A DNA stretch of 64,000 nucleotides, from positions 37,830 to 101,829 of the IMG/VR virus record IMGVR_UViG_3300010383_000113; one strand, given 5' to 3'. Made by a program: the position numbers and the translations under genes. Source of the DNA: a virus. Lineage: Duplodnaviria; Heunggongvirae; Uroviricota; Caudoviricetes. The notes below the pieces were generated by a model, which was given only the letters and a program-made list of their open reading frames with translations, ran no database searches and was not told the DNA's origin. This document shows, one piece after another, positions 226 through 64,000 of the stretch. Each line of letters opens with the position of its first letter. Position 1 is the first letter of the stretch.

Positions 226-259
226 GTAGCAGGGAGGGACCATCTCCACCCCCTGCTAC
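226..259 (-). terminator. Inverted repeat GTAGCAGGG-N16-CCCTGCTAC, a possible terminator for the gene ending at 284
   Basis: Perfect 9-bp stem 25 nt downstream of the - strand stop, followed on the - strand by TCTTGTTC. Both arms are copies of the genome-wide repeat motif. Confidence 0.4.
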
Positions 260-283
260 CCTACCGACGGACATTCCACGCGA

Positions 284-772
284 TCAGGCCGGAAGCTCGA
301 CGCCCAGCTTCGCCGCCATCAGCTTCATCAAAGCCTGCTGCTGGGCGATGGTGGCGAGAAGGGCCGCATTGGCACCGTTCCCGCCCTTGGATGCCTTCTC
401 CGCCGAGGGAATGGGCGTACCGTCGAAATGTTCCGGCTTCAGGACGTCTTTCATCTCGCCGGTCAGGGCCGCCCAGTAGTCTTTCCCCTGTCGCGTCCGC
501 TTGACCTTGATGGAACCGTCCTTGAAAAGACCGTACGTCTTCCCCTCATGATCGACCGTCTTCGACACCGTTTCGGCGTCGTCCTTGACGTCCGCGACCT
601 CATGCAGAATGTCCAGGAATCGCGTGCAATTGTCGTCGCTCAGAGCCTCGATCAGCTTCCGAGCCTTCGCTCGGCCGAACGTGAAGGACTCCGGGCGGGC
701 CGGATCGTCGTTTTCGATGATGACGACCGGAAAACCCTTGTACTCGCCCTTGCGAATGATGATGTTCGACAT
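284..772 (-). CDS. Hypothetical phage protein (162 aa)
   Basis: ATG start, strong GC3 codon bias, protein-like composition; no family recognised. Confidence 0.8.
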   Translation of the reverse strand: MSNIIIRKGEYKGFPVVIIENDDPARPESFTFGRAKARKLIEALSDDNCTRFLDILHEVADVKDDAETVSKTVDHEGKTYGLFKDGSIKVKRTRQGKDYWAALTGEMKDVLKPEHFDGTPIPSAEKASKGGNGANAALLATIAQQQALMKLMAAKLGVELPA

Positions 773-1680
773 CGTGAAACCCCTTATGCTCGACGTTCGT
801 GGTACTCATTCGGGCCCGTCCATCCGGGCCCATCCGCAAGGGTAGGAATCGAACCTACTAGGCTTTGGACTATGTCCGACGCCACCAAACCTGGCCTTGC
901 GGCACTTTGTATCGTTCTGTTAAGACCAGTCTTATTGAGCCCCTATGCCACCGTGTACCTACCTAGCATCGGCCGGTTTCTAATGGCTCTGACTGGAATC
1001 CCTCATTTCGCAACGGGTGCGTCCTTGTTCGTGGCCGCCCACAATCACGCCGCACCCTGTCACGATGCGACACCCCATCGAACGCCGGGGGGACCAGGAA
1101 TGGAGACCTGGATAAGCGGCGGCGGTTTGCGACCGGATGAACCCTTAGCGACGCTACGTACCCTTGCGGGCGGTTCTAATCATTCGCTGGGGATCGACAC
1201 GGAATATCGTCGTCCCCCCGCTCTTACGTTCTCCCGCATCCCATCCCCTGCATAGGGTAGACGGGTCGCGGGCCGCATGTTCATACATGCTCTCACACCC
1301 ATTTCTAAGGCGGGGTGCTGGTCCGACCGCCGAACGCTTGTTATCGCGTCCATCGCACGGCTTCCCCTCACTAATCGCACCGTCCCCCACCTGTCGTCGC
1401 CATGCTCCACTAGGAATGACATGGCAACTATCAAGGGTACTAGGCACGCATCGTTCGGCTTGGCTTGCGATCCTATGTTGTATGAGAGCCATCCCCTATG
1501 GGGTTAAGGCCCGTTGCGTGCCGTCCCATCCCGCACGCTGGACATTCCGCCGGCCCGTAGGCCACCCCCGGATGCCGCCGGGGCGGGATCTTTTGCGTCG
1601 GATTCTACCGACGTTCCCCGAAGGGATGACGCGGGCCGGTCTCGAAACCGGCCGGGGGCCCTATCCCTCGCGTCGCGTTC

Positions 1681-1845
1681 TCAGACCATGTACATGCCGC
1701 TAGGCCGGTCGTACCCGTTGGCGTCGGCGTAGGCGTTCGCCCGATCGAACGCGACTTCCCGCGTCTTGAACCGTCCGACGACGACGTCGCCGGCCTGGAT
1801 CGTGAACACGTCGTCGAGCCCGAGGATCACCTTGACTTCTCGCAT
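1681..1845 (-). CDS. Small hypothetical protein (54 aa, MREVKVILGLDD...)
   Basis: ATG at 1845 preceded by GAGGGAG; GC3-biased codons, within the 1681..2088 ORF frame. Confidence 0.55.
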   Translation of the reverse strand: MREVKVILGLDDVFTIQAGDVVVGRFKTREVAFDRANAYADANGYDRPSGMYMV

Positions 1846-2109
1846 CGTCTCGTCTCCCTCTCGCACCCCTAGGCCGGGCCGATTCGCGAGGGTCCGTCCC
1901 CCGCGTCTCTCGTCTCGTCTCGGCCCGCCTTGCACACCTAGGCCGGGGCGAATCGGGACCGAATGCGTGCAAGCATTGTGCAAGCTTGCAGAGGCCGGAG
2001 GAGGGGGGGTTTTTATGATCGGCGGGGCGAAAAACGAGGAGGGGGGCGAACACGCACCTCGTCCCCTTAAAACCGGACCCCTCCCCAACCTTTTCGCATC
2101 AGCGTAGCC

Positions 2110-2322
2110 TTATGCGTCCTCGTCCCGCTCGCGTCTCCAGTCCGGCTTCGCCAGGTTCGAGAAGCCGAGCCTCGCGAGTCGGTTGCGGACGGCCCGTTCG
2201 TTGACGTCGAGGCCGATGGCGTCCCGCAGCATGTGGGAGATCTCGCGATGGGTGTGGCTCTGGGCCCAGAGCAGCAGCAGGCTATCGGCGTCGGGGTTGT
2301 CGCCCCAGGGGGTCTTGGGCAC
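2110..2322 (-). CDS. Small HTH-type DNA-binding protein (GcrA-like N-terminus)
   Basis: LLLLWAQSHTHREISHML...VNERAVRNRLARLG matches a helix-turn-helix pattern; GTG start. Confidence 0.6.
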   Translation of the reverse strand: MPKTPWGDNPDADSLLLLWAQSHTHREISHMLRDAIGLDVNERAVRNRLARLGFSNLAKPDWRRERDEDA

Positions 2323-2383
2323 GGGCGTCTCATCCCTTTCGGTGTAATGGCGTATGTTGAGATGTCAAAGCGAGGATCCTGAG

Positions 2384-2623: not shown

Positions 2624-3197
2624 GGAGGCGGAGCGGGAGGTCTACGCGATCATCGCGGAGGTGGCCCGTTCGATGTCCCTGACGCAGCCGTTCGGCTACC
2701 ACACGCCCGACGACGTGTCCCAGATCGCGTTCGAGGAGTCGATCGACGTCCTCACGAACCGGGACAAGTACGACTTCGAGCGGCCCCTGGCCAACTTCCT
2801 CTGGATCAACGCCCGCAACCGCATCCAGAACCTCAAGCGTCGCCAGTTCCACCGCAGCGAGGCCCCCTGCAAGTGCTGCGACCCCTACAACCCGGGGCCG
2901 TCGCCCTGCAAGCGTTGGGAGTCCTGGGCCCGGAACAACCAGAGCAAGCAGCGGATCATGTGCCCGGCCAGCCTGACGAGCGACGCCAACCTCCCTGCTC
3001 CGACCCCCTCGCCCGACGAGGGGGTCCTCTTCGACGAGCTGGACTCCTACATCACGGCCCGCTTGCCGCAGGAACTCCTAACCGAATATAGGACGTTCGT
3101 CGCCGAGGGGGACATGCCCAGGGCCCGCCACGCCCACGTCAAGGCCGTCCTACGCCGCATCCTGGAGGGTTCCCCCTATGACCCGGCCCGCCAATGA
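2553..3197 (+). CDS. Sigma-70/ECF-like RNA polymerase sigma factor (true start may be 2589 or 2613)
   Basis: Region-2-like segment DDVSQIAFEESIDVL...KYDFERPLANFLWINARNRIQNLKRR and a C-terminal region-4-like helix; Cys-rich insert (PCKCCDP...PCKRW). Confidence 0.65.
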   Translation: MTPTFLTKYAAKMAERAGGPVTLEEAEREVYAIIAEVARSMSLTQPFGYHTPDDVSQIAFEESIDVLTNRDKYDFERPLANFLWINARNRIQNLKRRQFHRSEAPCKCCDPYNPGPSPCKRWESWARNNQSKQRIMCPASLTSDANLPAPTPSPDEGVLFDELDSYITARLPQELLTEYRTFVAEGDMPRARHAHVKAVLRRILEGSPYDPARQ

Positions 3198-3993: not shown

Positions 3994-4540
3994 CTTCACC
4001 ATCATCCGCGACACGAGGGAGAAGGACGGCAAGGGCTGGAATTTCCGGGCCTCGACCGGGTGCGACGGCATGGAGACGACGGCCCTCAAGACGGGCGACT
4101 ACGCCATCAGGGGGCTCGAAAACCTGGTCGTGATCGAACGCAAGGGGTCGATCGGTGAGGTCGTCACCAACGTCACCACCGACCTTCCCCGGTTCGAACG
4201 CGAACTGGTCCGGCTGGAGGCCGACGTCGCCCACCCGTTCATCCTGATCGAGGCGAACCTCGAAGACCTGGTCGGCTGGCCCCGCACGTCCGGGCTGTCG
4301 CAGCGTGTGCGATCCCGCATCAAGACGACGGGCTCCTACATCCTCAAGATCATCACCGGCCTCATGCTGAAGTATCCGCGTATCCGCTGGGTGTTCTGCG
4401 GGGCGGACGGGCAGAAGCTCGCACTCTCCATCTTCAAGAGGGCCTTCGAGGCGGCGACGCCTGCGGAGAAGGCGGTAGCAGGGGGCGAGGCCCCCGTCGG
4501 CAAGAAGTCGACGCGGAAGAAGGCGACGCCCGGGTCATGA
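3983..4540 (+). CDS. ERCC4/XPF-Mus81 family nuclease
   Basis: IIRDTREK...LKTGDYAI...VVIERKGSIGE signature (DxRE, GDY, ERK); GTG start overlapping the upstream stop. Confidence 0.85.
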   Translation: MTTNFTIIRDTREKDGKGWNFRASTGCDGMETTALKTGDYAIRGLENLVVIERKGSIGEVVTNVTTDLPRFERELVRLEADVAHPFILIEANLEDLVGWPRTSGLSQRVRSRIKTTGSYILKIITGLMLKYPRIRWVFCGADGQKLALSIFKRAFEAATPAEKAVAGGEAPVGKKSTRKKATPGS

Positions 4541-6576
4541 AGAAGTTCGACGAGAGGTCGGTGACCAGGCTCATCGACCTGGAATACTTCGGCATCGAGG
4601 AGTCCGACCTGGAGGGGCGTGAGATCGCCCTCGACTGGTTCCGCGACGACGAGCCGTACGAGAAGACGCTCCTCCGGATGATGAGGGATCCGGCCAACTT
4701 CCACTTCACCTGCCGGCACCTGCTGGGGTGGAAACCCTTCCCCTACCAGGTCGTCGCCCTGGAGACGCTCTGGACCCACAAATTCCCGATGCTCCTGGGC
4801 AGTCGCGGATTCGGCAAGTCGACGATCCTCGGCGTCTTCGCCCTGCTCTATGCGATCTTCAAGCAGGGGTCGAAGGTGGTCGTGACCGGGGCCGGGTTCC
4901 GCCAGGCCAAGCTGATCATCGAGGGCGTCGAGCAGATCATCCAGAAGTCGCCCGTCTTCCAGAGCATGTTCGGCAGGCCCGGCGACATCATCAGCAAGGG
5001 GAACGACCGCTGGGTCTGCCGGGTCGGCGATTCCCGGATCACCGCACTCCCCATGGGCGACGGCTCGACCATCCGTGGCGAGCGGGCCCACCTCGTCATC
5101 GGCGACGAATTCGCGTCCATCAATCGCGACGTCTTCGAGCAGGTCGTACGCGGGTTCGGCGTCGTCATGCAGGACCCGGACCAGAACGTCCGCCGCAAGG
5201 CCAGGATCCGCGTGCTCAAGCGGCTGGGCCTGTGGTCGCCGCAGCTCGAAGAGATCGAGCAGAACTCGATGAAGGGCAATCAGCTCATCATCAGCGGGAC
5301 CGCCTACTACCAGTTCAACCACTTCTACGACTACTGGAAGAAGTGGAAGCTGATCATCGAATCGCAGGGGGACGCCAAGGTCCTGCAAGACTCGGGGATC
5401 GACCCCGCCAAGACCAACTGGAAGGATTTCGCGATCATCCGGGCCCCGTGGGAGTCGCTGCCCGAGGGGTACTACGACGACGACCAGATCGAGCAGGCCC
5501 GGCACACCAACACGGCCAACAACTTCGCCATGGAGTACGACACCGTATTCCCCAGCGACACCCACGGCTTCTTCCCCCGAAGCCTCATCGAGTCCTGCAC
5601 GACCAACAGCCCCATCATCCCCTTCGAATCCGACGCCCCGATCATGTTCACGGCCAGGTCGCGGGGCGACGGGGACCTCCAGTACGTCTACGGCGTCGAC
5701 CCCGCCATGAACGAGGACAAGTTCGCGGTCGTCATCCTGGAGGTCCACCCGACGCATCGCCGCGTGGTCCACTGCTGGACGATCAACAAGAAGAACTACC
5801 GGGAACGCGAGAGGGCGGCCGGGGAGGAATTCGACGGGTACTTCGCCTTCTGTGCCCGCAAGATCCGCGACCTCATGAAGATCTTCCCCTGCTCCGTCAT
5901 CTCCATCGACAGCCAGGGCGGCGGCGGGGCCCTGCTGGAGGCCCTCGGCGACAAGTCCAAACTCCAGGCCGGCGAACGCCCCCTGCTCCCGATCTCCCCC
6001 GGCCACCCCCTCCACAACGGCAAGAAGCACCCGGACGACGACAAGAGCGGCCTGCACATCGTCGAACTCGTCAACTTCCGCGACTCGGCCTACACCTCCG
6101 GTGCCAACAACGACCTCCGCAAGGACATGGAGGACAGGGCGATCCTGTTCCCGTTCTTCGACCAGGCCGGGGTGGCGATCGACGTCGCCAAGAACGAGCT
6201 GTTCAAGGCCTCGCGATTCGACACGTACGACGACGTCTGCCACGAGATCCTCGAACTCCAGGACGAACTCTCCACCATCCAACTGCTGCCGTCGGCCAAC
6301 GGCCTGACCGAGAGGTGGGACACGCCCGAGATCAAGCTGCCGGGGGCGAAGAAAGGCCGCATGAGGAAGGACCGCTACTCCGCCCTCATCATGGCCAACT
6401 ACGCGGCCCGTCGGATGCACCGGGCCCCCGAGGACGAGCCGATCCGCGTCTTCGGCGGGGCGGTGATCGAGGGCCACGACATCTTCACGAGCAAGGACGA
6501 CGGCGTCGTGGTCTCCAACCCCGACTGGTGGAACTCCGACGTGCTGGCCAACCTCGACCTGTTCGGGGCCGTCTGA
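4537..6576 (+). CDS. terL: Terminase large subunit
   Basis: Walker A GSRGFGKS, Walker B LVIGDEF, coupling motif IISGTA, RNase H-like nuclease YVYGVDPA...IDSQGGG and C-terminal KDRYSAL. Confidence 0.9.
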   Translation: MKKFDERSVTRLIDLEYFGIEESDLEGREIALDWFRDDEPYEKTLLRMMRDPANFHFTCRHLLGWKPFPYQVVALETLWTHKFPMLLGSRGFGKSTILGVFALLYAIFKQGSKVVVTGAGFRQAKLIIEGVEQIIQKSPVFQSMFGRPGDIISKGNDRWVCRVGDSRITALPMGDGSTIRGERAHLVIGDEFASINRDVFEQVVRGFGVVMQDPDQNVRRKARIRVLKRLGLWSPQLEEIEQNSMKGNQLIISGTAYYQFNHFYDYWKKWKLIIESQGDAKVLQDSGIDPAKTNWKDFAIIRAPWESLPEGYYDDDQIEQARHTNTANNFAMEYDTVFPSDTHGFFPRSLIESCTTNSPIIPFESDAPIMFTARSRGDGDLQYVYGVDPAMNEDKFAVVILEVHPTHRRVVHCWTINKKNYRERERAAGEEFDGYFAFCARKIRDLMKIFPCSVISIDSQGGGGALLEALGDKSKLQAGERPLLPISPGHPLHNGKKHPDDDKSGLHIVELVNFRDSAYTSGANNDLRKDMEDRAILFPFFDQAGVAIDVAKNELFKASRFDTYDDVCHEILELQDELSTIQLLPSANGLTERWDTPEIKLPGAKKGRMRKDRYSALIMANYAARRMHRAPEDEPIRVFGGAVIEGHDIFTSKDDGVVVSNPDWWNSDVLANLDLFGAV

Positions 6577-6642
6577 GGCACGACCGGCCGGTGTATCTTA
6601 TTGCGTTGTGATCATATTACGATGCAATCAGGACGCCGGCCG

Positions 6643-8859
6643 ATGAAGAAGAAGCTCGGGCCCAACCCCTACGCCGCCGACGACGCCCCGATGCTCGCCC
6701 AGGAGGCCCTCGCCGAGCTGGGGGTCGTCTCGGAGGCGAATGCGGCCCGGGTGCCCACGCCCTCGGGCCCCGGCGTGACGTTCCGGCCGATGTCGAAGTG
6801 GTTCGACGGCGGCACCCCGACGCCCTACGGCACCGACGGCCGGCGGGAGCCCTGGGACGACTCCGCGACCCGGCGACGCAACGAGAAGCTCCGCATCGTC
6901 GACGAGATCTTCGAGCACAACGGCGAGGTCTCCTTCGTCATCGACATGTTCGTGAGCTTCGTCTGCCAGGGGATCGACATCCACCACACGTCGACCTCCA
7001 AGCAGGACCGCTACCGCCACTGGTGGAACAAGGTGGGGGGCAAGCACGTCAGCGAGCGGCTCGTCAGCGAGTTCCTCCGCCACGGGTTCGGGGCCGTCGA
7101 GGTGGCCTACGGGGACCTCAAGAAGAAGGACGTGGCGGACCTCGACGCGACCGAGGCCGCCCGCCCGGCCCCCGACCTGGCCTACGTCCGCTCCCAGCCC
7201 TCGCCCAGGGGCCGCATCCCCCTCCTCTACGAGATCCAGAGCCCCTACGACGTCGAGATGATCGGCGGCGAGCTGAACCGCGTCTCGCGGCGTAAGCGGT
7301 ACGGCATCCGGATGTCCGAGACGCTCCGGTCGATGATCCGGAGCCCCAACGAGTCGAACCGGGATCTCATCAAGGACCTGCCCAAGACCTGGATCGACGC
7401 GGCCGAGAGCAAGGACCCGGTCGTCCCGATGGACGCCGACCACCTGGTGGTCCTCCACTACAAGAAGGACGACTACAAGCCCTGGGCCGACCCGCTCATC
7501 TACTCGATCGTCGAAGACCTCCACATCTACCGCTGCATGAAGGCGGCCGACCTCGCCGCCCTCGAAGGGTCCATCTCCCGGCTCCGGCTCATCAAGCTCG
7601 GGATGATCTGGGACCAGCACAACAAGATCCTCCCCAGCCGCGACGACATCCAGTCGCTCCGCAACCAGCTCCTCGCCATCCGCAACGGGGCCTCCTCGGA
7701 CCTCATCTGGCACCCGGCCATCTCGATCGAGGAGACCGGCAGCGACGTCGCCAACTTCCTGGGGCCCGACAAGTACCGCCAGATCATCTCGGCCATCTAC
7801 GCCGGGCTCGGCATCCCCCAGACACTCGCCGGGGCGTCGAGCGAGGGCGGGATGACCAACAACGCCCTCAGCCTCAAGACCCTGATGGAGAGGCTCTCCT
7901 ACGCCCGAGACCTCCTGGTCAAGTTCTGGAGGGGCGAGTTCGAGAAGCTCCGCAGGGCCTTCGGGGACCGCTACGCCGCCGAGCTGAAGTTCGACCTCAT
8001 GAGCCTGGCCGACGAGGCCGCCGAGAAGAAGCTCTGGATCGACCTCTACGACCGCCACGTCATCTCCGAGGAGACGCTCCTGGGCCGGTTCGGCCAGCTC
8101 CCCCGGGTCGAGAACGCCCGGATCCGCCGCGAGGACGCCCAGCGTGCCGCCGGCACTCGGCCCGCCCGCCTCGGCGTCTTCACCGAGAACGAGACCCATC
8201 CCGACCAGATGAAGAAGGCCCTCCTCAACCAGGGCCACTTCGCCCCCTCGGAGGTCGGCGTCGAGGTCAAGCCCCGCAAGAAGGGCGAGAAGTCGCTGCT
8301 CGACCGCCAGGAGGAACTCGCCGCCAAGGCCGCCGCCGCGAAGCCCACGCCCGACTCGGGTTCGGGGAAGAAGGGAGTAGCAGGGGAGGGTCGACCCAAG
8401 GGCCGGACGGACGAGACCAAGCGGAAACGCCGCACCCCCAAGGTGAGGCAGGCCGCCGCCGGGCTGGTCGCCCTCCAGGCCAAGGCCCGCGAGGACCTGC
8501 GGGCGATCGACAGGGCCCTGACCCCCGCCTTCCTGGCCGCCGCCGGCAAGAAGAACCTCCGCCAGCTCACCTCGGCCGAGGCCTCCGCCCTCGAAGACGC
8601 CAAGTTCGCCGCCCTCATGGCCGTCCCGCCCGACGCCCGTGCGACCGCCGAATGGGCCGCGTCCGGCGAGGCCCCCTCCACCCCCCTGCTCCCGCATTCG
8701 GAATTGCTCAACTCCCTGATTGCTGATGCGTTCACCTCGCGAGGTGTAAATCCCACCATGGACGACGTCCGCGAGATGCAGGCGTCGGCCTACGCCCTCT
8801 TCCACACCGAGGACCCCACCGATGGCGATCCTGACCCTGACGGTCGACACGAAGGCTGA
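6643..8859 (+). CDS. Portal protein (putative)
   Basis: About 740-aa gene directly after terL and before the protease/capsid genes; helical core with a low-complexity basic tail. The call rests mainly on synteny. Confidence 0.7.
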   Translation: MKKKLGPNPYAADDAPMLAQEALAELGVVSEANAARVPTPSGPGVTFRPMSKWFDGGTPTPYGTDGRREPWDDSATRRRNEKLRIVDEIFEHNGEVSFVIDMFVSFVCQGIDIHHTSTSKQDRYRHWWNKVGGKHVSERLVSEFLRHGFGAVEVAYGDLKKKDVADLDATEAARPAPDLAYVRSQPSPRGRIPLLYEIQSPYDVEMIGGELNRVSRRKRYGIRMSETLRSMIRSPNESNRDLIKDLPKTWIDAAESKDPVVPMDADHLVVLHYKKDDYKPWADPLIYSIVEDLHIYRCMKAADLAALEGSISRLRLIKLGMIWDQHNKILPSRDDIQSLRNQLLAIRNGASSDLIWHPAISIEETGSDVANFLGPDKYRQIISAIYAGLGIPQTLAGASSEGGMTNNALSLKTLMERLSYARDLLVKFWRGEFEKLRRAFGDRYAAELKFDLMSLADEAAEKKLWIDLYDRHVISEETLLGRFGQLPRVENARIRREDAQRAAGTRPARLGVFTENETHPDQMKKALLNQGHFAPSEVGVEVKPRKKGEKSLLDRQEELAAKAAAAKPTPDSGSGKKGVAGEGRPKGRTDETKRKRRTPKVRQAAAGLVALQAKAREDLRAIDRALTPAFLAAAGKKNLRQLTSAEASALEDAKFAALMAVPPDARATAEWAASGEAPSTPLLPHSELLNSLIADAFTSRGVNPTMDDVREMQASAYALFHTEDPTDGDPDPDGRHEG

Positions 8860-10611: not shown

Positions 10612-10641
10612 GACGCCCAGGAACCTAGGAGACATCGGAAC

Positions 10642-11103
10642 ATGGCACTCGCGGCCGACATCTGGATCGTGGAAGACCGGACGGGCTTCACCTGCAACAC
10701 CGTCCTGGAGCGGGGCGGCGTCGTCTCGCAGACCTCCGGCGGCACCGGCGGCTATCCCGCCGACTCCGGCGTCGTGGACTACGTCGCCGACCCGGCCAAC
10801 GCCGTCCCCATCGGCGTCCTCTTCCCCAACGTCACCAACTGGTCCGCCGTCAAGGGCGGGCACCCGAATCCGGAGCAGGGGGGGTTCGAACAGCACATCG
10901 GCGACAAGGTCCGGATCGTCAACCGGGGCGAGGTCGTCACCAACATGATCCCGGGCGGCGTGACCCCGACCGCCGGGGCCAAGGCCTACCTCGCGGCCAA
11001 CGGGCTCATCAGCTCGACCCAGGCGAGCAACGCCCCGCAGGTCGGACGCTTCGTCACCGCCAAGAACGCGGCCGGCTACGCCCGCGTCAAGATCGAACTC
11101 TAA
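10642..11103 (+). CDS. Capsid decoration/cement protein (putative)
   Basis: 153 aa, Gly-rich beta protein immediately before the major capsid protein; ends in YARVKIEL. Confidence 0.6.
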   Translation: MALAADIWIVEDRTGFTCNTVLERGGVVSQTSGGTGGYPADSGVVDYVADPANAVPIGVLFPNVTNWSAVKGGHPNPEQGGFEQHIGDKVRIVNRGEVVTNMIPGGVTPTAGAKAYLAANGLISSTQASNAPQVGRFVTAKNAAGYARVKIEL

Positions 11104-14607: not shown

Positions 14608-14622
14608 GGGGAGGAGCAGGGG

Positions 14623-33101: not shown

Positions 33102-33102
33102 C

Positions 33103-38968: not shown

Positions 38969-38984
38969 CCCCCTGCTCCTCCCC

Positions 38985-39533: not shown

Positions 39534-39545
39534 TGTCTCGATATC

Positions 39546-53235: not shown

Positions 53236-53876
53236 GAGTCACGTTCCTTCAAATCGAGAAACCGAATCTCTTCCGGCCAATAGCCAAGACTCCCATTGGA
53301 ATGATCCACGTCGAACGTCCGGACGATGAGATAGTCGTTCAACGTCCTTTTGATGAGCGACCCTCTCGTGCCGCCCCACTGAACAAGCCGGTTGTTCGAA
53401 TAAACGGCCGACTCGCCCATGGCATCATCAACGACCAGGACGGCCGCTGGCCGGGAGCAGGGAGGGGCGTACTCTTCGTCGACCCAGACGTTTTCCAGCC
53501 GCTTGGGCCAGTAGATCTCTCCTTGGCACTCCTTCGTCATGGACCCAATGATGCGACGGCACTTCTCGTCGATGTGCTCGGATTCCTTGTGGGTGGGCCA
53601 ACTGTTGACGTAGTCGCCGTCCAGATAGTAGGCCGTCTCGCCCCTACCCAGGTCATCGACGCAAACTCTCTGCGGGGGCGGCGTCCCGACGGCGATGTCG
53701 GAAGAGACATGCTTCGTCTCAAGATCATCATCGGCGACGAAGAATCGAACGAGGACTTCGATGCCTCGCTGTTCGTGACGCCTGACGGCCGTGATCTCCT
53801 GGACCTCCTCGACCCTCTCCCCTGCTTCGTTCTCGATGAACGGCATGTTGCCGTCGAGCCTGTAGAACAACTTCAT
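53232..53876 (-). CDS. Hypothetical protein
   Basis: Coupled ORF in the operon. Confidence 0.65.
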   Translation of the reverse strand: MKLFYRLDGNMPFIENEAGERVEEVQEITAVRRHEQRGIEVLVRFFVADDDLETKHVSSDIAVGTPPPQRVCVDDLGRGETAYYLDGDYVNSWPTHKESEHIDEKCRRIIGSMTKECQGEIYWPKRLENVWVDEEYAPPCSRPAAVLVVDDAMGESAVYSNNRLVQWGGTRGSLIKRTLNDYLIVRTFDVDHSNGSLGYWPEEIRFLDLKERDS

Positions 53877-54940: not shown

Positions 54941-55617
54941 AGGACGCCGATCTCCCGGAGCCACGGGGCCAGACCACGCATCTGGGCCTCCGCGTCCTCC
55001 TGACTGTTGTCGTACACTTTGTCGAATCGAGCCCAATTGAACTTATCAGGGTCGAGTGCCGTCTCGCACTCATGGGTCGACTCGGGATAGGGGTTCCGCG
55101 TCAGCCGCAGCACATACCCTCCCTGCTCCTGGATTCCCTTCACTTCGTTCGGGAATCGGACGTCGGGGATGATGGCAATCAGCCGGCGTTCAATGCCGGG
55201 AAGCTCGCGTATTTGGCGTTCGCGATCCAGGATGTCAGCAAGGGATTTCCTCAGCCAAATATCGGGGTCGGACCTGCGGAAAATTTGAGTGCCCCACGCC
55301 TCCATGACCTGGCGTCCCGTCATGGGGCCTGATCTTCCGTTAGCAACCCCTGGGACCGGGAAGTTCTCCCATAGCAGGTGAGGTACGACGGAATTCTTCT
55401 GTTCATTGGTGCCGTCGACCTGTTCGGGCTTCAAGCCAAGCACGTCGACACAGAACCTCTTCAGGTGCTTGGCCATCGAGAACTCTTCCACAGCCACGAT
55501 CGGAAGAGACTTGTGGGCATGGAAGTGGTTGTCCCAGGCCGACGCGATGCCGAGGTAGGTCGTCGTCTTCCCGCTTTGCATCCTTCCGCTGACGCCCAGG
55601 ATGATCAATTTAGACAT
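54937..55617 (-). CDS. Deoxynucleoside monophosphate kinase (T4 gp1-like)
   Basis: GVSGRMQSGKTT, FS.A..LK, RQVME.WGT..FR..DPDIW, IIPDVRFPNE, HECE. Confidence 0.85.
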   Translation of the reverse strand: MSKLIILGVSGRMQSGKTTTYLGIASAWDNHFHAHKSLPIVAVEEFSMAKHLKRFCVDVLGLKPEQVDGTNEQKNSVVPHLLWENFPVPGVANGRSGPMTGRQVMEAWGTQIFRRSDPDIWLRKSLADILDRERQIRELPGIERRLIAIIPDVRFPNEVKGIQEQGGYVLRLTRNPYPESTHECETALDPDKFNWARFDKVYDNSQEDAEAQMRGLAPWLREIGVL

Positions 55618-55795: not shown

Positions 55796-56976
55796 TTCAT
55801 GTAGCCCTCGATGATTCGACGGTAGTTGTTCTTGACGTCGGCGGTCGTCATGTCGCCCAGGTCGCCCCCTTCAGGCTTGATCCGGTGGACCTTGGCCAGG
55901 CGTCGCCACTTGGCCTCGATCTGCTCGGCCGCCGCGTTGCCGGCGTCATCGTCGTCGGTCATGATCACGACGTGGGAGGGGCTGCACTCTTCGATCATGA
56001 CGTCCTGGAGGCCGCTAAGCTTGCTGCCCATGAGGGCCACGGCGTTCTGGACGCCGGCCTCGTCGAGCCGCCACACGTCGCCGGCCCCCTCCACCAGGAC
56101 GATGCAGCGGGACGTCACGATCCGCTTGCGGGCCCGCCAGAGGTTGTAGAGGTGGTGCTTGTCGTTGAAGCCGTCGGGCTGGACGACCCACCGCAGGTGC
56201 TTCTTGACCGAGGAGAACGGGGCGTCGCCCCGGGAGCAGGGAGGGCACTCCCCGAGGTGGCAGAACGAGCACTTCGGGCATCGGGGGTGGGGGGACCGGC
56301 AGAGGACTCCGATGATGACGGTGCCGTCTTCGTTGTAGATGGGCACGCTGGTCCGGCCGAAGTTGGGGCTCTGCTCGCAGATGTTCTCCCCGACCTCGAA
56401 CTTGGCGAGAGTCCGCTCCTCGTAGCCCCTACTCAGATAATAGGACGACGGGATCCGGTGCCAGCGGTGGAAGACCTCCCTGCTGCACAATTCCCCGGCC
56501 GGACGCCCCTCGGGCGACATCACCTCGACCCCGTGGATGAACGAACGGCGGGCGACCTTCTTGCCGTCGACCTTCACGTCGCCCAGGCTGACGCCCAGGA
56601 ACTTGCAGATCTCGTCGACGGCGGCCTTCGTCGTGACCGTCCTGTCGCCCTCGCGGCCCCATCCGTAGTGCTCGTGGGACATGATGCCCTTGGTGAAGCC
56701 GATCAGCGTCCTGGTGAAGGCCTTCTCGCACTTGTTGCTGTGGCACTCCCAGTTGCCCCGGACGGCGTAACCGTCGGGGTAGAGGTTGACGCCGCTGGAC
56801 GAGCTTCCGCCGTGGACCGGGCACCTCCCGATGTAGCGTTTGCCGTACCGTCTCAGGTCGAGCGAGAAGTAATCCAGGTAGCTTTCCAGCTTGTCGCAGG
56901 CCAAATTGCAGAGTTCGTTCAGTATCGCGTTGTCGCCGTACCTGTCAGAGGGATTGCGGCTCGACTTCGAGGGCAT
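55792..56976 (-). CDS. dnaG: DNA primase (DnaG-like; Zn finger and TOPRIM)
   Basis: CPVH...WECH..C zinc finger; VLVEGAGDVW, VALMG, DDDDAG; extra CPKC..C..C insert. Confidence 0.9.
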   Translation of the reverse strand: MPSKSSRNPSDRYGDNAILNELCNLACDKLESYLDYFSLDLRRYGKRYIGRCPVHGGSSSSGVNLYPDGYAVRGNWECHSNKCEKAFTRTLIGFTKGIMSHEHYGWGREGDRTVTTKAAVDEICKFLGVSLGDVKVDGKKVARRSFIHGVEVMSPEGRPAGELCSREVFHRWHRIPSSYYLSRGYEERTLAKFEVGENICEQSPNFGRTSVPIYNEDGTVIIGVLCRSPHPRCPKCSFCHLGECPPCSRGDAPFSSVKKHLRWVVQPDGFNDKHHLYNLWRARKRIVTSRCIVLVEGAGDVWRLDEAGVQNAVALMGSKLSGLQDVMIEECSPSHVVIMTDDDDAGNAAAEQIEAKWRRLAKVHRIKPEGGDLGDMTTADVKNNYRRIIEGYMK

Positions 56977-58453
56977 CGGGGAATTGCTCCACTTTCGGCT
57001 TCTTCAACTTTCGGGTCGATTTCTTCGAGGCGAACGTCTTCTCTTCCGAAGTCCTACTACCCCGCTCCTTGTAGATCTCGAACTTCGTCTTGGTCTCCTT
57101 CATCCGGCAGGTGGCCCCGTCGAAATCGAGGCTGATGTAGTTGCCGTCGGCCCCGGGGCCGTGGCGGGCGATGAGGCAGAGGAGCTTGCGATTCCCGTTC
57201 TCGGGCCCGTCGTGCTCGATCTCCTCCTCGGTCTTCTTCTTGAGGATCGTGAACGAGGAGCACTTCCAGATGATCCGGTCCGAGCCGGCCGCCACCGTGG
57301 TGGACTCCTTCTCGTCGCCCTCCCGGTTGAGCTGGAGCAGCGACAGGACCGCGACCTGATACTTCGAGGCCAGCCTGATGAGGGCCATCATCTGGAACCC
57401 GAGCATCTGGTACTCCTTGAAGTCCCCCTTGAACTCCGAGGCGTCGCTGACCTGGAGGTAGTCGTACACGATGAGGGCCTTCTCTCGTCGTCCGACCTCG
57501 CCGATCGGGACGTTCTTCACGATCCAGCGTCGCATCATCGCGAGCTGTTCCTCGAACGAGAGGTCCACCACCGACTTGTAGTGGTAGGGGAGTCGCTCCA
57601 GATCGTCCATGGCTCGACGTAGATCGGCCTTCTCCTCTTCGTTGACGCACCCCTTCTCGATATCATTGATCTTGATGCCCGTTTCATGAGCCAGGATGCG
57701 TGCCTGCTGTTCTTCGGGTGACATCTCAGTGTCAACATTCAGCACAAACGTGCCTGATTTGGCCACAAACATACAAACTTCGTTACTTAAGCTACTTTTG
57801 CCCTGCTTCGGTCTGGCCGCAAAGACCGTCACGCCGCCGACCCTGCAACCTCCGCCTACCTGCTCGTTCCATTTGGCAAACGGCAGAGGGATGCCGACGT
57901 GCTCGCGGGGATTGGCGAGAATCTCTTCGAGCCACTCTTTGCCGCCCGCCGCGATGTGGGTCGATGAATTGAGCCGGTCGTCGCTGACGCTCTGGGCGTA
58001 CTCCAGGATCGGCTTCTCGGCGATCGAGAGGATGAGGGCCAGGGCCTCGTCGCCCGTGATCTTCTGGAGGTCGATCCGGGACTGGCGGAGCTTGTCGTCC
58101 AGCTCGCGGCCGACGTGGAGCTTCAGGAGTTTGGCGGCGGCGGGCCGGACGCTCTGGATGTCGACGTTCTTCGCATAGTTGTAGAGGCCCCTGATGTACT
58201 TGCGTTCGTCCTCCTGGCAGAGGATGTGGTCGATCTTCTTGGTGCGGGCCAGGGACATGAGGGTGGCGTGGTCGAGCGGCCTCTCCTCCCCTGCTCCGAA
58301 ATGGTCGGCGGCACAGGCGTAGATCAGCCTGTTGGTGTCGTCCGTCATGGCGTCGGCGAAGACCAGCTCGTCGGCGTCGATGAAGGCGTCGCGTCCGTGT
58401 CGGAGGATCCCGGAAATGATGATGCGTTCGGCTTCGATGTCTTCGAAAGGCAT
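56945..58453 (-). CDS. dnaB: Replicative DNA helicase
   Basis: AARPKQGKS Walker A, DTEMS, IVYDYLQ, LLQLNR, AGSDRI, IARHG. Confidence 0.9.
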   Translation of the reverse strand: MPFEDIEAERIIISGILRHGRDAFIDADELVFADAMTDDTNRLIYACAADHFGAGEERPLDHATLMSLARTKKIDHILCQEDERKYIRGLYNYAKNVDIQSVRPAAAKLLKLHVGRELDDKLRQSRIDLQKITGDEALALILSIAEKPILEYAQSVSDDRLNSSTHIAAGGKEWLEEILANPREHVGIPLPFAKWNEQVGGGCRVGGVTVFAARPKQGKSSLSNEVCMFVAKSGTFVLNVDTEMSPEEQQARILAHETGIKINDIEKGCVNEEEKADLRRAMDDLERLPYHYKSVVDLSFEEQLAMMRRWIVKNVPIGEVGRREKALIVYDYLQVSDASEFKGDFKEYQMLGFQMMALIRLASKYQVAVLSLLQLNREGDEKESTTVAAGSDRIIWKCSSFTILKKKTEEEIEHDGPENGNRKLLCLIARHGPGADGNYISLDFDGATCRMKETKTKFEIYKERGSRTSEEKTFASKKSTRKLKKPKVEQFPDALEVEPQSL

Positions 58454-58459
58454 ACCGTC

Positions 58460-60372: not shown

Positions 60373-60815
60373 TACACTCCTTCGAGTCGGGAACGGATGC
60401 TGCGACGGGCTCGGGGCGGGGGCGGGGCCGTCTCGGCGGCGTCGCCGGGGGGAGTAGCAGGGGGTGGGGTCCTCGCCTCGTCGACCTGCTCGCGGGACGC
60501 CTCGATCGTGCGGTCGATTCGGCGTTGTTCTTCGGAGGCGAGTTCGCCGAGCTTGGGGTAGGCGAGGGAGCGGATCCAGGCGTTCTTGGTCAGGGCCGCC
60601 GAGATCGCCTCGACGTCGTACACCCGGAGGAGGGCCCTGGCGTTGCGGAGCTGGGCCTTGAAGACCTTCTCCCAGCCCGGATCCCTCCAGAACTTGAAGA
60701 ACAGCGAACGCCCCTGGGCCTGGGCGATCCTCAAGCACATCACCTCGGCGAGTTTCTGCTCCGCCGTGATCTTGCCGTCGGCCCCGTAGTCCGAGTCGTA
60801 GCAGGCTTTTCCCAT
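60372..60815 (-). CDS. Hypothetical protein
   Basis: ATG start; Pro-rich linker; coupled to recA. Confidence 0.65.
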   Translation of the reverse strand: MGKACYDSDYGADGKITAEQKLAEVMCLRIAQAQGRSLFFKFWRDPGWEKVFKAQLRNARALLRVYDVEAISAALTKNAWIRSLAYPKLGELASEEQRRIDRTIEASREQVDEARTPPPATPPGDAAETAPPPPRARRSIRSRLEGV

Positions 60816-60820
60816 GAGGT

Positions 60821-61231
60821 TTAATTAAGAATGAGCATTTCGGATTCGGTGTCGATCGGCCGTTCGTCCCGGTCGATCACGGTCAGCTCGGGCACCTTGA
60901 AGTGGACGGTCTGGACGGAGTCGCCCTCGACCCAGCCGACCCGGAAGCCGGCGACCTGGAAGGTGCCGGCCCCGACCACCCCGCCGGCCGTCCGGGCGAA
61001 GAAGTAGCCGGGCATGTCGGGCGGGAGTTCCTCGATGTGGGAGCGGAACTGGACGCGGAGCCCCTTGATCGACCTCCCCTGCTCCCGACAATGCCGGCCG
61101 AGACGGATCCAGGCCGAAGGGGGCTCGACGCCGGGCCGATCGTCGTCGCCGAAGACCGTGGTCCCGTCGTCGAGGACGGCCACCCAGCGGGCCCGGTCGC
61201 GGACGTAGTGGTCGTCGACCGTGCAGATCAC
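60821..61231 (-). CDS. Hypothetical protein
   Basis: GTGA overlap; GC3 bias. Confidence 0.65.
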   Translation of the reverse strand: MICTVDDHYVRDRARWVAVLDDGTTVFGDDDRPGVEPPSAWIRLGRHCREQGRSIKGLRVQFRSHIEELPPDMPGYFFARTAGGVVGAGTFQVAGFRVGWVEGDSVQTVHFKVPELTVIDRDERPIDTESEMLILN

Positions 61232-61524: not shown

Positions 61525-61939
61525 TGATGAGGTTCCTGACGAGCTTCTCGTAGATGGTCTTGTGCCGGGGGTTCTGGAGGTAGCTGAGGTAGAGATGGAA
61601 CTGGTCGAGCGTGACCTGCTTGAACTTGAAGGTCCGCTTCCGCTCCTCGTCCATGTGCTTGAGGAACGTGTGCATGTTGAAGTCGACGCCGAACGGGTCC
61701 ATCGGGGCCGGGTCCAGCCCGACCGAGTCGAGGAACCGGATGGAGAACACCGTCTCGCCCCCGAAGGTGACGGCCTTGGCCGCCATGTACCGCTCGTCGT
61801 CCATCGGCCGCCCCTTGTGGTCGTATCCCTCGACCGAGGCCTCGCCGACGCCCTCGCCGCCCTCCCTGCTCCCGTCTTCTTCCCTGCGGGGCACCCGGTA
61901 GAACCCGTCCCCGCTGCCGCTGCGGACGCGATCGTTCAT
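61517..61939 (-). CDS. Hypothetical protein
   Basis: ATG 61939 overlapping the upstream stop. Confidence 0.6.
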   Translation of the reverse strand: MNDRVRSGSGDGFYRVPRREEDGSREGGEGVGEASVEGYDHKGRPMDDERYMAAKAVTFGGETVFSIRFLDSVGLDPAPMDPFGVDFNMHTFLKHMDEERKRTFKFKQVTLDQFHLYLSYLQNPRHKTIYEKLVRNLING

Positions 61940-62244: not shown

Positions 62245-62464
62245 GGGAGGGGTCTCCGGTTGCGTTCTTGAGGAATTGTTGGACCTTGGCGACGCACGCC
62301 TGCCGGTCGTCGGCCTCGATCGCCGCCGCCTCGACGCCGGTCGACTTGGGCCACGGCTGGATCCGGCCCTCGCCGTCCACCTCGTGGAGTTCCCAGCGGA
62401 TCGAGACCAGGGCGACGTGGCGGGCCGAGTCGTCCTCGGGTGGCTTCTTGGGGAGTCCGGCCAT
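62204..62464 (-). CDS. Hypothetical protein
   Basis: ATG ORF in the operon. Confidence 0.55.
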   Translation of the reverse strand: MAGLPKKPPEDDSARHVALVSIRWELHEVDGEGRIQPWPKSTGVEAAAIEADDRQACVAKVQQFLKNATGDPSLGKIVGKADRPKV

Positions 62465-62465
62465 C

Positions 62466-62834
62466 TCAGCCCCCCGTCGTGATCGAGGGGGTCAGGCCTT
62501 CGGTCGTCCGGCCCGTCATGATGTAACGCTCCTTCTGGGCGTCCGTGAGGTTCGCGAGGCCCTTGTTCGGCTCGCCGTCACGCCACCAGGGCTTGTAGGG
62601 CTCGGGGACGTCGCCACGCAGGTCTTCCCGCTGGCCCTTGAGCTTCGAGGTGTTGCGGTCGGCCAGGGCCCCCAGGGTCCTCGGCGTGGCGTCGAAGATG
62701 GTGGGGGGATGGAGGACTCGTCGGTAGTCCCCACTCTTACACTTAGGACAGGAGGTCAGGGCGTCGTCTCGAATCGACTGCACAACCTCGTCGACGGACT
62801 CGCAATCATGACACTTGTAGACGTAAAGGGGCAT
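62466..62834 (-). CDS. FmdB-family zinc-ribbon protein
   Basis: MPLYVYKCHDC...VVQSI.D..LTSCPKC..G..RRV signature. Confidence 0.85.
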   Translation of the reverse strand: MPLYVYKCHDCESVDEVVQSIRDDALTSCPKCKSGDYRRVLHPPTIFDATPRTLGALADRNTSKLKGQREDLRGDVPEPYKPWWRDGEPNKGLANLTDAQKERYIMTGRTTEGLTPSITTGG

Positions 62835-63115
62835 GGCTCGCCTTCGGCGGGAGCAGGGAGGGCGTTCTGCGTGAATCCTTCGACGACCTCTTCGTAGACG
62901 TCGAAATCCATGTAGGAGTTGAAATCGGGGAACGTCGGCACGTTGGTGACCAGGCCGCGAACGCCGTCCGCCCACCTCGGGACCATGTCGAACTCGAACG
63001 ACATCGGCACGCCCTTGATGAGCTTCCCCTGCGGAGCCCCACCCCCTGCTACCGCCGCCTTGGCGGCGAACGGCAGTGCCAGGAGCGAGGTCAGGAAGCC
63101 ACGACGGTCTTCCAT
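62756..63115 (-). CDS. Small protein with a twin-arginine (Tat) signal
   Basis: MEDRRGFLTSLLALPFAAKAAVA. Confidence 0.65.
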   Translation of the reverse strand: MEDRRGFLTSLLALPFAAKAAVAGGGAPQGKLIKGVPMSFEFDMVPRWADGVRGLVTNVPTFPDFNSYMDFDVYEEVVEGFTQNALPAPAEGEPCPFTSTSVMIASPSTRLCSRFETTP

Positions 63116-63117
63116 GA

Positions 63118-63393
63118 TCACTCGTCCTTCAAGATCGCGGCGTACAAGGCCTGAGCGGCCAAGAATCCCATGGTGATGGGACCGCCGAGGACACTTGCGA
63201 CGAGAATCAGGATTACCAGCACGGTGGCGACGGAGTCCGCCCATCGGCCGAGTCGATTCCGGAAAGAGTCGGCAAGGATGCGTCGGGCAAGTCGCAACTT
63301 CGCCGTTTCACTGGCCTCCCACCCAGTCAGAATGATCCAAATCCAAAGACCGATGCAGCCGACGTGGAAGATCGAATAAAGGATCAAGAACAA
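63118..63393 (-). CDS. Membrane protein with 2-3 TM helices (holin-like)
   Basis: TTG start with GGAG RBS; hydrophobic helices separated by a basic loop. Confidence 0.55.
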   Translation of the reverse strand: MFLILYSIFHVGCIGLWIWIILTGWEASETAKLRLARRILADSFRNRLGRWADSVATVLVILILVASVLGGPITMGFLAAQALYAAILKDE

Positions 63394-63395
63394 AT

Positions 63396-64000
63396 TCAGT
63401 TCTCCGAGAAGGGCGAATGGGGATCGATGCGGCACCCGACGTCGCCGGGCCAACGCTCCATGAGGCGACGCAGGAACTCTTCGCGGACGATGTCGGCGGC
63501 GGTCATGGCCACGGTGGCGACGCCGTCGACGCTGTTGTGCCCGGTCCACCAGCGGGCGAACATCTCGAAGGCCCCTCGGCGGTCGGGGTGGAGGTCGGAC
63601 TGGCTCTCGTCGCCGTTGATGACGAGCTTGGAGCCCTTGCCGAGCCGCGTGATGATCATCTTGAGCTGCTCGTGGGTGCAGTTCTGGGCCTCGTCCACGA
63701 TGATGAAGGACCGCTTGAACGTGAGGCCACGCATGAAATCGACCGGCTCGACGATGATGCTCGGCTGGTCGCCGCCGCGACGCCGCTTGAGGTCTTCGGG
63801 GGTGAAGTAGCGGCCGAGTTCGATCAGGATGGGCCGCAGGAAGGGGGCGTTCTTCTCCTCGGCGGTCCCGGGCAGGTAGCCCTGGTGGTCGCCGGCCCCG
63901 ACGCCCGGACGCACGCAGATGATCCGCTCGAACCCTCCCTGCTCCTGGGCCTTGATCGCCTCGGCGGCGGCCCCGCAGGCAAGGTGAGTCTTGCCGGTGC
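63396..64000 (-). CDS. phoH: PhoH-family ATPase (5' end outside the window)
   Basis: GTGKT at the window edge, GYLPGT.EEK..P, FMRGLTF...IIVDEAQN, IITRLG..SKLVINGD..QSDL. Confidence 0.92.
   Translation of the reverse strand, partial: TGKTHLACGAAAEAIKAQEQGGFERIICVRPGVGAGDHQGYLPGTAEEKNAPFLRPILIELGRYFTPEDLKRRRGGDQPSIIVEPVDFMRGLTFKRSFIIVDEAQNCTHEQLKMIITRLGKGSKLVINGDESQSDLHPDRRGAFEMFARWWTGHNSVDGVATVAMTAADIVREEFLRRLMERWPGDVGCRIDPHSPFSEN

Follow-up and report, generated by a model that had tools for sequence, protein, structure and literature searches.

What reads a short, asymmetric DNA word that recurs in every frame, on both strands and at even intervals through the genome of a phage? The question is raised by the word GKAGCAGGGR (K, G or T; R, A or G), which is scattered through a 64,000-nucleotide stretch of the Caudoviricetes record IMGVR_UViG_3300010383_000113; this stretch, hereafter the window, covers bases 37830-101829 of the 165,829-bp record. 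A preliminary description of the window, made by eye, had proposed that the copies form a selected lattice of cis-acting sites. We find that selection acts on the DNA word itself, that sites are evenly spaced on each strand and alternate in orientation between strands, and that related phages carry their own variants of the word around a common core.

A DNA word maintained by selection

An exact search of the window returned 49 copies of GKAGCAGGGR, 20 on the plus and 29 on the minus strand, slightly more than the 47 (19 and 28) of the preliminary description, whose report of a strong excess is borne out: the mean over 100 dinucleotide-preserving shuffles was 0.84 copies per window, and none exceeded 4. 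The full record holds 135 copies (57 plus, 78 minus), ~0.8 per kb or one per ~1.2 kb. This excess survives a codon-preserving shuffle, the check that had been proposed for it: with the proteins and per-gene codon usage held fixed and synonymous codons shuffled within predicted genes, the whole record yields 9.65 ± 2.8 copies and never more than 16. Enrichment of the lattice word ranges overall from 14- to 160-fold.

Alignment of all copies lengthens the site to about GA-GKAGCAGGGRGKG, an asymmetric element of 13-15 nt, with as many as 22 nt conserved in the early region and the extended consensus conserved equally in both orientations. The extension reported by eye stands in part: the 13-mer GKAGCAGGGRGKG fits 19 of the 49 copies in the window, but the full 18-mer GGGGAGGAGCAGGGAGGG, said to be shared by many, occurs there only twice. 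A 15-nt weight matrix of the site holds 19.1 bits, where locating 135 sites would take 11.3 bits in the phage genome alone and 17.0 bits with an 8.5-Mb chromosome in the same cell, a value that fits a specific binder working inside a host cell. The site set is sharp, since scoring the genome with this matrix reveals only 17 near-cognate positions beyond the 135.

Neither composition nor coding can account for the word. Site density is uncorrelated with local GC content, which varies from 0.54 to 0.74 (Spearman rho -0.04), and this result together with the codon-preserving null rules out a compositional or codon artefact. As had been noted, copies occur in several reading frames and between genes; all six frames are in fact used, yielding the peptides EEQG, GAGx, RSRE, PLLx, LPAP and PPCS, and at a conserved site in the portal gene (below) the DNA is kept while the protein drifts, which together exclude a cause at the peptide level. 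Selection thus acts on the DNA word itself.

Even spacing and alternating orientation

Sites on the same strand are spaced far more evenly than randomly placed ones. Genome-wide, the coefficient of variation (CV) of same-strand gaps is 0.58 on the plus and 0.65 on the minus strand, against 0.97-0.98 ± 0.11-0.12 for random placement, and none of 5,000 simulations reached so low a value on either strand; within the window the CV falls to 0.40 (plus) and 0.53 (minus). With both strands pooled, spacing is only slightly regular (CV 0.88). Mean same-strand spacings are 2.1 and 2.9 kb. The under-dispersion suspected by eye is therefore real, although the range of 1.7-6.2 kb given for plus-strand gaps does not hold throughout, one of them (26897 to 27375) measuring 478 bp. 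Many minus-strand gaps were said to be 2.5-2.9 kb long, in agreement with our count of 11 of 28 in the window at 2.50-2.90 kb, an interval picked post hoc, and the near-match noted at 40300 proves to be a one-mismatch copy, GCAGCAGGGA (40298..40307, +; 14.2 bits), that fills the longest plus-strand gap. The modal minus-strand spacing (window sites 250 to 61076) is poorly predicted by a simple regular, gamma-like process.

Coverage is also uniform along the genome. Each 5-kb bin contains one to nine copies, nearly always in both orientations, and nowhere does polarity switch. The preliminary description was right that density is similar in the late and early/replication modules of the window (0.77 and 0.76 per kb) and so shows no tie to the direction of transcription; in orientation, too, the two classes are balanced, 64 copies being sense and 71 antisense to the local transcript. 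Sites are densest at record positions 32700-38100, where 17 fall within 5.4 kb, 4-10 kb upstream of TerL, the large terminase gene, among small open reading frames (ORFs) on both strands and with a consensus of ~22 nt (AAGAGTAGCAGGGAGGGGCGAT); this may be a control region. Its right edge enters the window as a close convergent pair, GTAGCAGGGA at 226..235 (+) and GTAGCAGGGG at 250..259 (-), spaced by 24 bp.

The strongest regularity, absent from the preliminary description, is an alternation of orientation. Neighbouring sites lie on opposite strands in 103 of 134 pairs genome-wide (65.8 ± 5.7 with shuffled strand labels) and in 37 of 48 pairs in the window (23.7 ± 3.4 expected). A circular-shift null that keeps each strand's own regularity gives 85.6 ± 4.0 switches genome-wide, still fewer than the 103 observed (p about 0.001), and with seven close pairs removed the comparison is 91 against 74.6 ± 4.1 (p 0.003). 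Convergent neighbours (plus, then minus) are separated by a median of 583 bp and divergent ones by 1113 bp (p 0.002), seven convergent pairs being only 18-53 bp apart, and distances between neighbouring partners extend from 18 bp to more than 3 kb. Gene junctions do not produce the alternation, since seven copies within a single 2884-amino-acid (aa) gene follow the order -,+,-,+,-,+,-: 23239..23248 (-), 25144..25153 (+), 25169..25178 (-), 26897..26906 (+), 27124..27133 (-), 27375..27384 (+) and 29624..29633 (-). The second and third of these are the left and right arms of a close pair, the right arm adjoined by a 7-bp hairpin.

These regularities bear on two kinds of reader. Because coverage is even in each orientation irrespective of gene class, it is possible, if on balance unlikely, that a tracking machine of the phage reads the lattice, either as a Chi-like 'self' word or as a hard-wired primase start, requires a site every 2-3 kb whichever way it moves and co-evolves with it in each lineage; coupling between the strands favours instead some cooperation of inverted neighbours, such as looping. 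In an architectural lattice of this second kind, a phage protein would bridge inverted site pairs into small loops for compaction, silencing or packaging, and alternation would be selected since pairing would be open to inverted neighbours alone. The excess of alternation over two independent regular lattices, with or without the close pairs, the closeness of convergent neighbours and the recurrence of alternation in pooled relatives (below) all speak for such bridging. The widely varying partner distances do not, nor does a strand-biased prophage relative without significant alternation; no candidate bridging protein emerged among the ORFs tested and we are aware of no precedent in phages. 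We hold an architectural role to be improbable.

Relation to genes, start codons and hairpins

Could the word instead act in RNA? By our gene calls, which are crude and leave 14% of the genome non-coding, 45 copies lie sense within ORFs, 49 antisense within ORFs and 41 in intergenic space or at gene edges, a 2.7-fold enrichment at gene junctions (41/135). An ATG-started ORF of at least 40 codons begins 0-9 nt downstream of 16 of the 64 sense copies; for antisense copies, with the range widened to 0-12 nt, the count is 5 of 71. When ATG, GTG or TTG starts are allowed, the two classes are alike (27/64 and 24/71). This likeness rules out ribosome binding as the chief function and leaves it as a side use of about a quarter of sense copies, among them the intergenic site at 14613..14622 (+), which the ATG of a 469-aa ORF directly follows.

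A broader reading at the RNA level would have sense copies serve as Shine-Dalgarno sequences (GGAGG) and antisense copies as their mimics (CCUCC), the two pairing within polycistronic messages and so controlling translation or the stability of the mRNA. It draws on the ATG adjacency just described, on the predominance of sense copies among those fused to hairpins (below), and on several convergent pairs in early regions, each enclosing one small gene between a sense copy at its start and an antisense copy beyond its stop. Yet three-quarters of sense copies are not beside a start codon, copies lie deep in large genes and in every frame (seven in the 2884-aa gene), the extended consensus is kept equally in both orientations, and the even spacing does not depend on gene size. 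Shine-Dalgarno pairing accounts for the junction subset only, and for the lattice as a whole it is a distinctly unlikely explanation.

A GC-rich hairpin of 5-9 bp adjoins the 5' side of 27 of the 135 sites, where 2.3 would be expected. Hairpin and site abut directly in 23 cases (gap 0 nt) and are 1-2 nt apart in the other four; the loop is 3 nt long in 22, and 18 loops read TNC, that is, GNA on the opposite strand. Stem sequences vary from site to site, so what is conserved is the structure. Most hairpin-fused sites are sense (19/27), mainly at gene ends, and a search of Rfam matched no RNA family anywhere in the window. Hairpin fusion is unsupported as a clade-wide trait, being weak or absent in relatives.

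These hairpins enter into one of the tracking readings, hard-wired priming, in which the phage's DnaG-type primase, together with its DnaB-like helicase, would start lagging-strand primers preferentially at the site on exposed single strands and so set the starts of Okazaki fragments every 2-3 kb on either strand. The mean same-strand spacings, and the modal 2.5-2.9 kb of the minus strand, are comparable in length to Okazaki fragments. Sites on both strands occur throughout, as would suit forks that depend on recombination or run in several directions, and the phage has a gene for a RecA-like protein. It also has a Toprim primase and a DnaB-like helicase, and the complementary strand of the word contains CTG, the start triplet of Escherichia coli DnaG. 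DNA mini-hairpins with GNA loops are very stable and are known from the origins of single-stranded DNA phages, so that a GC hairpin at 0-2 nt from 27 sites, 18 of them with such triloops, would be in keeping. Known primase and single-strand signals (T7 GTC-type sites, the phage G4 origin, RSF1010 ssiA and ssiB) are likewise strand-specific, act on exposed single strands and have adjoining hairpins. Here, though, the hairpin accompanies only 20% of sites, is weak in relatives and is biased to the sense strand, which gives it an RNA-like look. DnaG-type primases recognise 3-5 nt, not 13-15, and priming does not predict the coupling of strands; we know of no phage that hard-wires priming at a 13-nt word and consider this reading, too, an improbable one.

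Variants of the word in related phages

We next asked whether the word is a property of this genome or of its lineage. A protein database search returned thousands of TerL homologues, and relatives were obtained through this database together with an alignment-based scan; a single-protein TerL scan of IMG/VR retrieved none, and a search of IMG/VR with the inverted motif pair gave 120 loci, all single chance matches without a lattice, the pattern being too unspecific. The closest lineages (45-55% TerL identity, 48-58% GC) were fetched as loci of 5.7-22 kb, and 15-32 kb was analysed per relative. Their own most enriched asymmetric words are TTTGGAGCAGGGRGG, AGCAGGGG, GGGGCAGGGAG, GAGGGGCAGGGGG, TAAGGCAGGGGAAAT and WAGGCAGGGG, at 0.5-1 per kb, and a more distant prophage (43% TerL identity, 60% GC) has the word GCAGGGAAG. 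All contain GCAGGG: at least eight lineages have variants around it, and every mid- or high-GC relative fetched has its own variant around this invariant core. Alternation recurs as well, with 66 strand switches in the pooled relatives against 51.4 ± 4.7 expected (z 3.1), most strongly in lineages that share AGCAGGG; the prophage shows a strand bias (16 minus, 7 plus) and no significant alternation. The densest clusters of the relatives lie in the equivalent region upstream of TerL. The conserved core joins the codon-aware null, the use of six frames, the independence from GC and the under-dispersion in upholding the view of the preliminary description that the copies form a selected cis-acting lattice.

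Individual positions are conserved only exceptionally. Alignment of five structural genes showed 20 of their 24 sites to be confined to one lineage. A conserved one is an antisense site towards the 3' end of the portal gene, in the C-terminal region of its product (8683..8692, - in the window), which keeps its position and orientation in 4-5 of 7 lineages: it occupies the same alignment column in four, with a one-mismatch copy in a fifth. Each conserved copy follows its own lineage's variant of the word, and the surrounding protein is barely conserved. Positional conservation, the third check that had been proposed, thus holds for the portal site and fails for most others, and it is chiefly density, with a few fixed positions, that is maintained.

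The same comparison bears on the idea that the sites are recombination linkers, short shared sequences at module edges that promote the exchange of cassettes between co-infecting relatives. Junction enrichment, inverted pairs around single small genes in early regions, and a gene content upstream of TerL that is highly variable across relatives would suit linkers; that most copies lie within conserved essential genes, and that variants differ between relatives, which would hinder exchange, would not. We regard this explanation as very unlikely.

Among low-GC relatives in IMG/VR (32-41% GC), no genome-wide word was found; some have co-oriented repeats or clustered palindromes, in the early small-gene region only. 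In three of them (L127:420-3230, L148:580-4160 and L174:130-6250), the 15-bp palindrome CTGCCAWWWTGGCAG is present two or three times, at 29-bp intervals, in each early intergenic region. These palindromes look like operators; their half-site TGGCAG(G) resembles the GGCAGGG core in sharing GGCAG, possibly by coincidence. Five others (L144:560-7930, L216:170-6480, L126:260-3420, L178:800-3380 and L181:1720-5750) have mostly co-oriented junction repeats in the early small-gene region, such as TAAGGACTTAcg, CGCCCTAAGTC and the hairpin GACCCCCCTAGCGAGGGGTC, which look like early promoter or terminator cassettes. In L155 (18630-19580) and L156 (14000-15740) the top enriched words derive from long collagen-like G-x-Q tracts in putative tail-fibre genes (CAAGGA/CAAGGT, 9-nt period). 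Separately, six TerL homologues (P0010, P0020, P0022, P0023, P0059 and P0113) are 976-1122 aa long and have intein/LAGLIDADG domains (PF14528, PF14890), a sign, as judged from domain matches, that TerL has been colonised by inteins in some branches of the family.

The word is not a host word

The prophage relative lies on a 78.8-kb contig of a metagenome-assembled genome (MAG) of the Gemmataceae (L229-L232, C5:1-78816). Genes for kinase-WD40 fusions, TPR proteins, an SNF2 helicase and a radical-SAM enzyme occupy the left ~38 kb of this contig, which from ~38.8 kb onward carries phage genes up to its end; because the left part consists of host chromosome genes, we take the relative to be an integrated prophage. 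Its word GCAGGGAAG occurs once in the 38-kb host flank and 23 times in the 40-kb prophage, and the whole 8.5-Mb MAG has 270 copies as against 219 of a reversed control. In 201 Planctomycetota genomes GGAGCAGGGR is present at no more than ~0.04 per kb, near control, compared with 0.55 per kb in the phage, and in 61 genomes the 8-mer core occurs at 0.02-0.39 per kb (ratios to control 0.25-5), compared with 0.98 per kb in the phage. As the host flank, the MAG and the 201 genomes all lack enrichment, the signal belongs to the phage lineage.

The preliminary description had likened the word to host guide words such as Chi and KOPS/SRS. The likeness to G-rich, polar host words is evident, and the density of about one per kb, on both strands and through genes, is that of the uptake sequences DUS and USS. 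These are words of host chromosomes, however, and KOPS and SRS are polar, whereas the lattice word is not enriched in host DNA, by any of the four comparisons above, and has no polarity in the phage. The likeness therefore does not amount to membership, and inheritance from a host, whether as host Chi, uptake sequence or KOPS-like guide, is largely refuted and retains only the slightest probability; we dropped it on finding host DNA unenriched in every comparison, the phage's own host not being identified.

A separate possibility is a Chi-like signal owned by the phage. Here a helicase-nuclease, of the phage or an AddAB-type enzyme of the host, would enter from any DNA end, read one orientation and switch from degradation to protection or recombination, so that phage DNA, unlike that of the host, would carry a mark of self in both directions. 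This would explain the equal use of strands, the even coverage per orientation, the uniformity across modules and the presence of sites in any frame. Like Chi, which is thought to mark self DNA, the word is G-rich, asymmetric and scattered through genes in any frame; its information content suits discrimination of self from non-self against an 8.5-Mb host, and the phage has a RecA-like protein and a Cas4-like exonuclease. Unlike true Chi, it is not enriched in the host chromosome, it shows no polarity, and at 13-15 nt, with lineage-specific flanks, it is longer than any known Chi (5-8 nt). The phage genes include a single nuclease and the PhoH-like ATPase, but nothing that resembles RecBCD or AddAB. 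Nor does a Chi-like signal predict the strand coupling seen in alternation (p about 0.001-0.003) and convergent closeness (p 0.002). On the host side, the Gemmataceae MAG has one AddB-like ORF, which scored under the family cut-off, and RecC was not found there. Chi in E. coli has an observed-to-expected ratio of 2.3 and a density of 0.2 per kb (PMC3784561), a quarter of that of the lattice. Phages dependent on RecBCD or AddAB are known to accumulate the Chi of their hosts (PMC3784561), a precedent that fails here because the host is not enriched. On balance we find a phage-specific Chi rather unlikely.

Sites and genes along the window

The remaining sites of the window, all exact matches to GKAGCAGGGR and given in window coordinates, are distributed as follows. 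At the left, a minus-strand site at 2992..3001 has a 9-bp hairpin ending 1 nt ahead of its 5' edge. The packaging region encodes an ERCC4-family nuclease (3932-4540) whose last 4 nt lie inside TerL (4537-6576); gene calls are available for seven relatives, of which six have this pair and the seventh (L205) has an un-annotated 200-aa gene there. One site at 4475..4484 (+) occupies the 3' end of the ERCC4-like gene, immediately upstream of TerL, and two lie antisense within TerL, at 5886..5895 and 5980..5989 (both -). The portal-like gene has, besides its conserved antisense copy, a sense copy at 8377..8386 (+), and a further one falls within a head gene of 153 aa (10872..10881, +). Coding regions beyond the 14613 site contain antisense copies at 15262..15271, 16653..16662, 18091..18100 and 20637..20646 (all -) and a sense copy at 18207..18216 (+), and 21913..21922 (+) is immediately upstream of the 2884-aa gene.

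Downstream of that gene, an 819-aa gene contains two antisense sites, 31902..31911 and 32690..32699 (both -), and between them a sense site at 31983..31992 (+) with a 5-bp hairpin ending 2 nt ahead. A GT variant at 33724..33733 (+) is sense in a 654-aa gene, and a 1065-aa gene has an antisense site at 36092..36101 (-), an antisense GT variant at 36860..36869 (-) and a sense site at 37622..37631 (+). The border between late and early modules is marked by an intergenic site at 38970..38979 (-); beside it, at 38985-40049 (-), neighbouring genes encode a circularly permuted YpsA/SLOG-family protein and a phage Dam-family N6-adenine methyltransferase.

In the early module, 41661..41670 (-) is adjoined by a 7-bp hairpin with a TGC loop, 43841..43850 (+) is an exact match, and 44385..44394 (-) falls outside the gene calls. 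The gene for the C-terminal half of DnaE has an antisense site at 45635..45644 (+) and a sense site at 46053..46062 (-). Two intergenic sites follow, 48531..48540 (+) with a TTC-loop hairpin (CGGGC/GCCCG) 2 nt ahead and 48748..48757 (-) with an adjoining 6-bp hairpin. Sense copies in coding regions lie at 51593..51602 and 55120..55129 (both -), and an antisense copy with an adjoining 5-bp hairpin at 53454..53463 (+). The primase gene (55792-56976, -) has an antisense site at 56233..56242 (+) with an adjoining 6-bp hairpin; its product matches a PHROG DNA primase, with the Toprim domain at residues 291-373, and the N-terminal ~290 residues have no Pfam match and no recognisable zinc-binding or DnaG polymerase domain. 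The DnaB-like helicase gene has a sense site (58288..58297, -) and the RecA-like gene an antisense GT variant (60454..60463, +). Exact matches at 61076..61085 (-), 61863..61872 (-) and 62850..62859 (+) precede an intergenic GT variant with an adjoining 6-bp hairpin (63043..63052, -) and a last site, sense in the PhoH-like gene (63936..63945, -).

The window thus encodes TerL, a virion structural protein and the ERCC4-like nuclease that overlaps the start of TerL, together with a replication and repair set comprising the Toprim primase, the DnaB-like helicase, the RecA-like protein, a Cas4-like exonuclease and the PhoH-like ATPase, and a Dam-family methyltransferase. The last of these, and the several nucleases, invite the idea that a phage enzyme nicks or modifies one strand at the site, in the manner of T5, phiKMV and tf; the interruptions of tf are reportedly placed at a consensus on both strands. 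Nicked phages known so far have 4-14 such sites, as against 135 here. The sharpness and asymmetry of the site are what one would expect of an enzyme recognition sequence, and localized single-strand interruptions have been reported for phage tf (PMC3517423). With seven convergent pairs 18-53 bp apart, though, nicking of both members would risk double-strand breaks, and modification alone would leave the enrichment and even spacing unexplained. A strand-specific nick or mark is accordingly quite improbable.

A candidate reader

The facts require a reader that recognises ~13-15 nt, either in duplex DNA or on a single strand, is sensitive to orientation, works amid a host genome and shifts its specificity slowly among lineages. 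The preliminary description had listed five possible functions without preferring one, and the data establish none of them. To the reading that we favour, a phage-encoded DNA-binding protein with a stoperator-like docking network, we assign a probability of about 0.35. The protein would bind one asymmetric site at a time, sequence-specifically, and once bound would affect machines that travel on the DNA, above all RNA polymerase, according to the orientation of the site; a machine arriving from either side would then meet a suitably oriented site about every 2-3 kb. The element, a temperate phage or phage-plasmid of Planctomycetota, might thereby be kept silent or organised as prophage or plasmid. 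Sites would be placed where they are cheap, at gene junctions, and written into genes where no junction is available. We rank this protein lattice first because a stoperator network shares most of the traits of the lattice and because the temperate lifestyle, evident from a relative integrated in a chromosome, fits it.

Several observations weigh against such a protein. Site orientation does not follow transcription, sense and antisense copies being about equally many (64 and 71), and ~70% of sites (94/135) lie inside ORFs, seven of them in the one 2884-aa gene. Structural, replication and plasmid-maintenance genes, the rep gene included, are equally dense in sites, which would be odd for a lysogeny repressor, and we know of no repressor network for which even same-strand spacing and alternation have been described. 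No DNA-binding family was matched in Pfam or PHROGs by the ORFs tested, namely those near TerL, those of the densest cluster and the two, at 2110 and 61228, that had been put forward as helix-turn-helix binders. A presence/absence profile across lattice-bearing and lattice-free relatives brought out only structural genes and no candidate reader protein.

The closest known relatives of such a network are the stoperators of Cluster A mycobacteriophages, asymmetric sites of ~13 bp that are bound by a monomeric repressor of the L5 gp71 type and of which some are syntenic (PMC9283540, PMC6550527). Their motifs are 'similar, but not identical' between genomes, tracking the distance between repressors (PMC6550527). 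The lattice resembles them in its asymmetric 13-nt site, in tens of copies at ~0.5-0.8 per kb, in its enrichment at junctions, in its variant motifs and in having some syntenic sites. The genome of L5 is ~52 kb long. It has more than 20 stoperators (PMC9283540), a density of the same order as the 0.8 per kb of the lattice. Stoperator orientation, however, correlates with the direction of transcription (PMC9283540, PMC6550527), a tie described as 'striking', and reversed sites fail to repress (PMC9283540). Here orientation is independent of transcription and alternates, same-strand spacing is even, and in place of promoters and short intergenic spaces most sites occupy ORFs, plasmid-maintenance and structural genes among them. 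Because the orientation-transcription tie is absent, most sites are intragenic and the ORFs tested contain no repressor, the lattice is not a member of the Cluster A stoperator family as defined.

A second point of comparison is the phage-plasmid P1, whose C1 repressor binds asymmetric 17-bp operators at many scattered sites, some of them in inverted overlapping pairs. These asymmetric sites are likewise dispersed over the genome; P1 has ~20 of them, all at promoters, without the lattice, in-gene sites or alternation found here.

To our knowledge, the only genome-wide short signals so far described in phages and bacteria are dispersed repressor sites, such as stoperators and P1 operators, and polar host words, such as Chi, KOPS and uptake sequences. 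The present lattice fits neither class, being phage-specific, spread over all frames and into essential genes, even and alternating, and spoken in GCAGGG dialects across a clade of large planctomycete phages. Its lineage-specific word is a strong marker for detecting and binning phages of this clade and for locating prophage borders, as the step from 1 to 23 copies at the Gemmataceae border illustrates. If a tracking enzyme reads it, the lattice would be the first Chi-like or priming code known to belong to a phage, and words of similarly even spacing and alternating orientation in unrelated phages and phage-plasmids (TGGGGCAG, for example) would form one undescribed class of genome-wide cis-acting systems. 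If instead the reader is a protein network, the stoperator idea would widen to a much larger lattice with both orientations in balance, in a phylum whose phages have hardly been studied.

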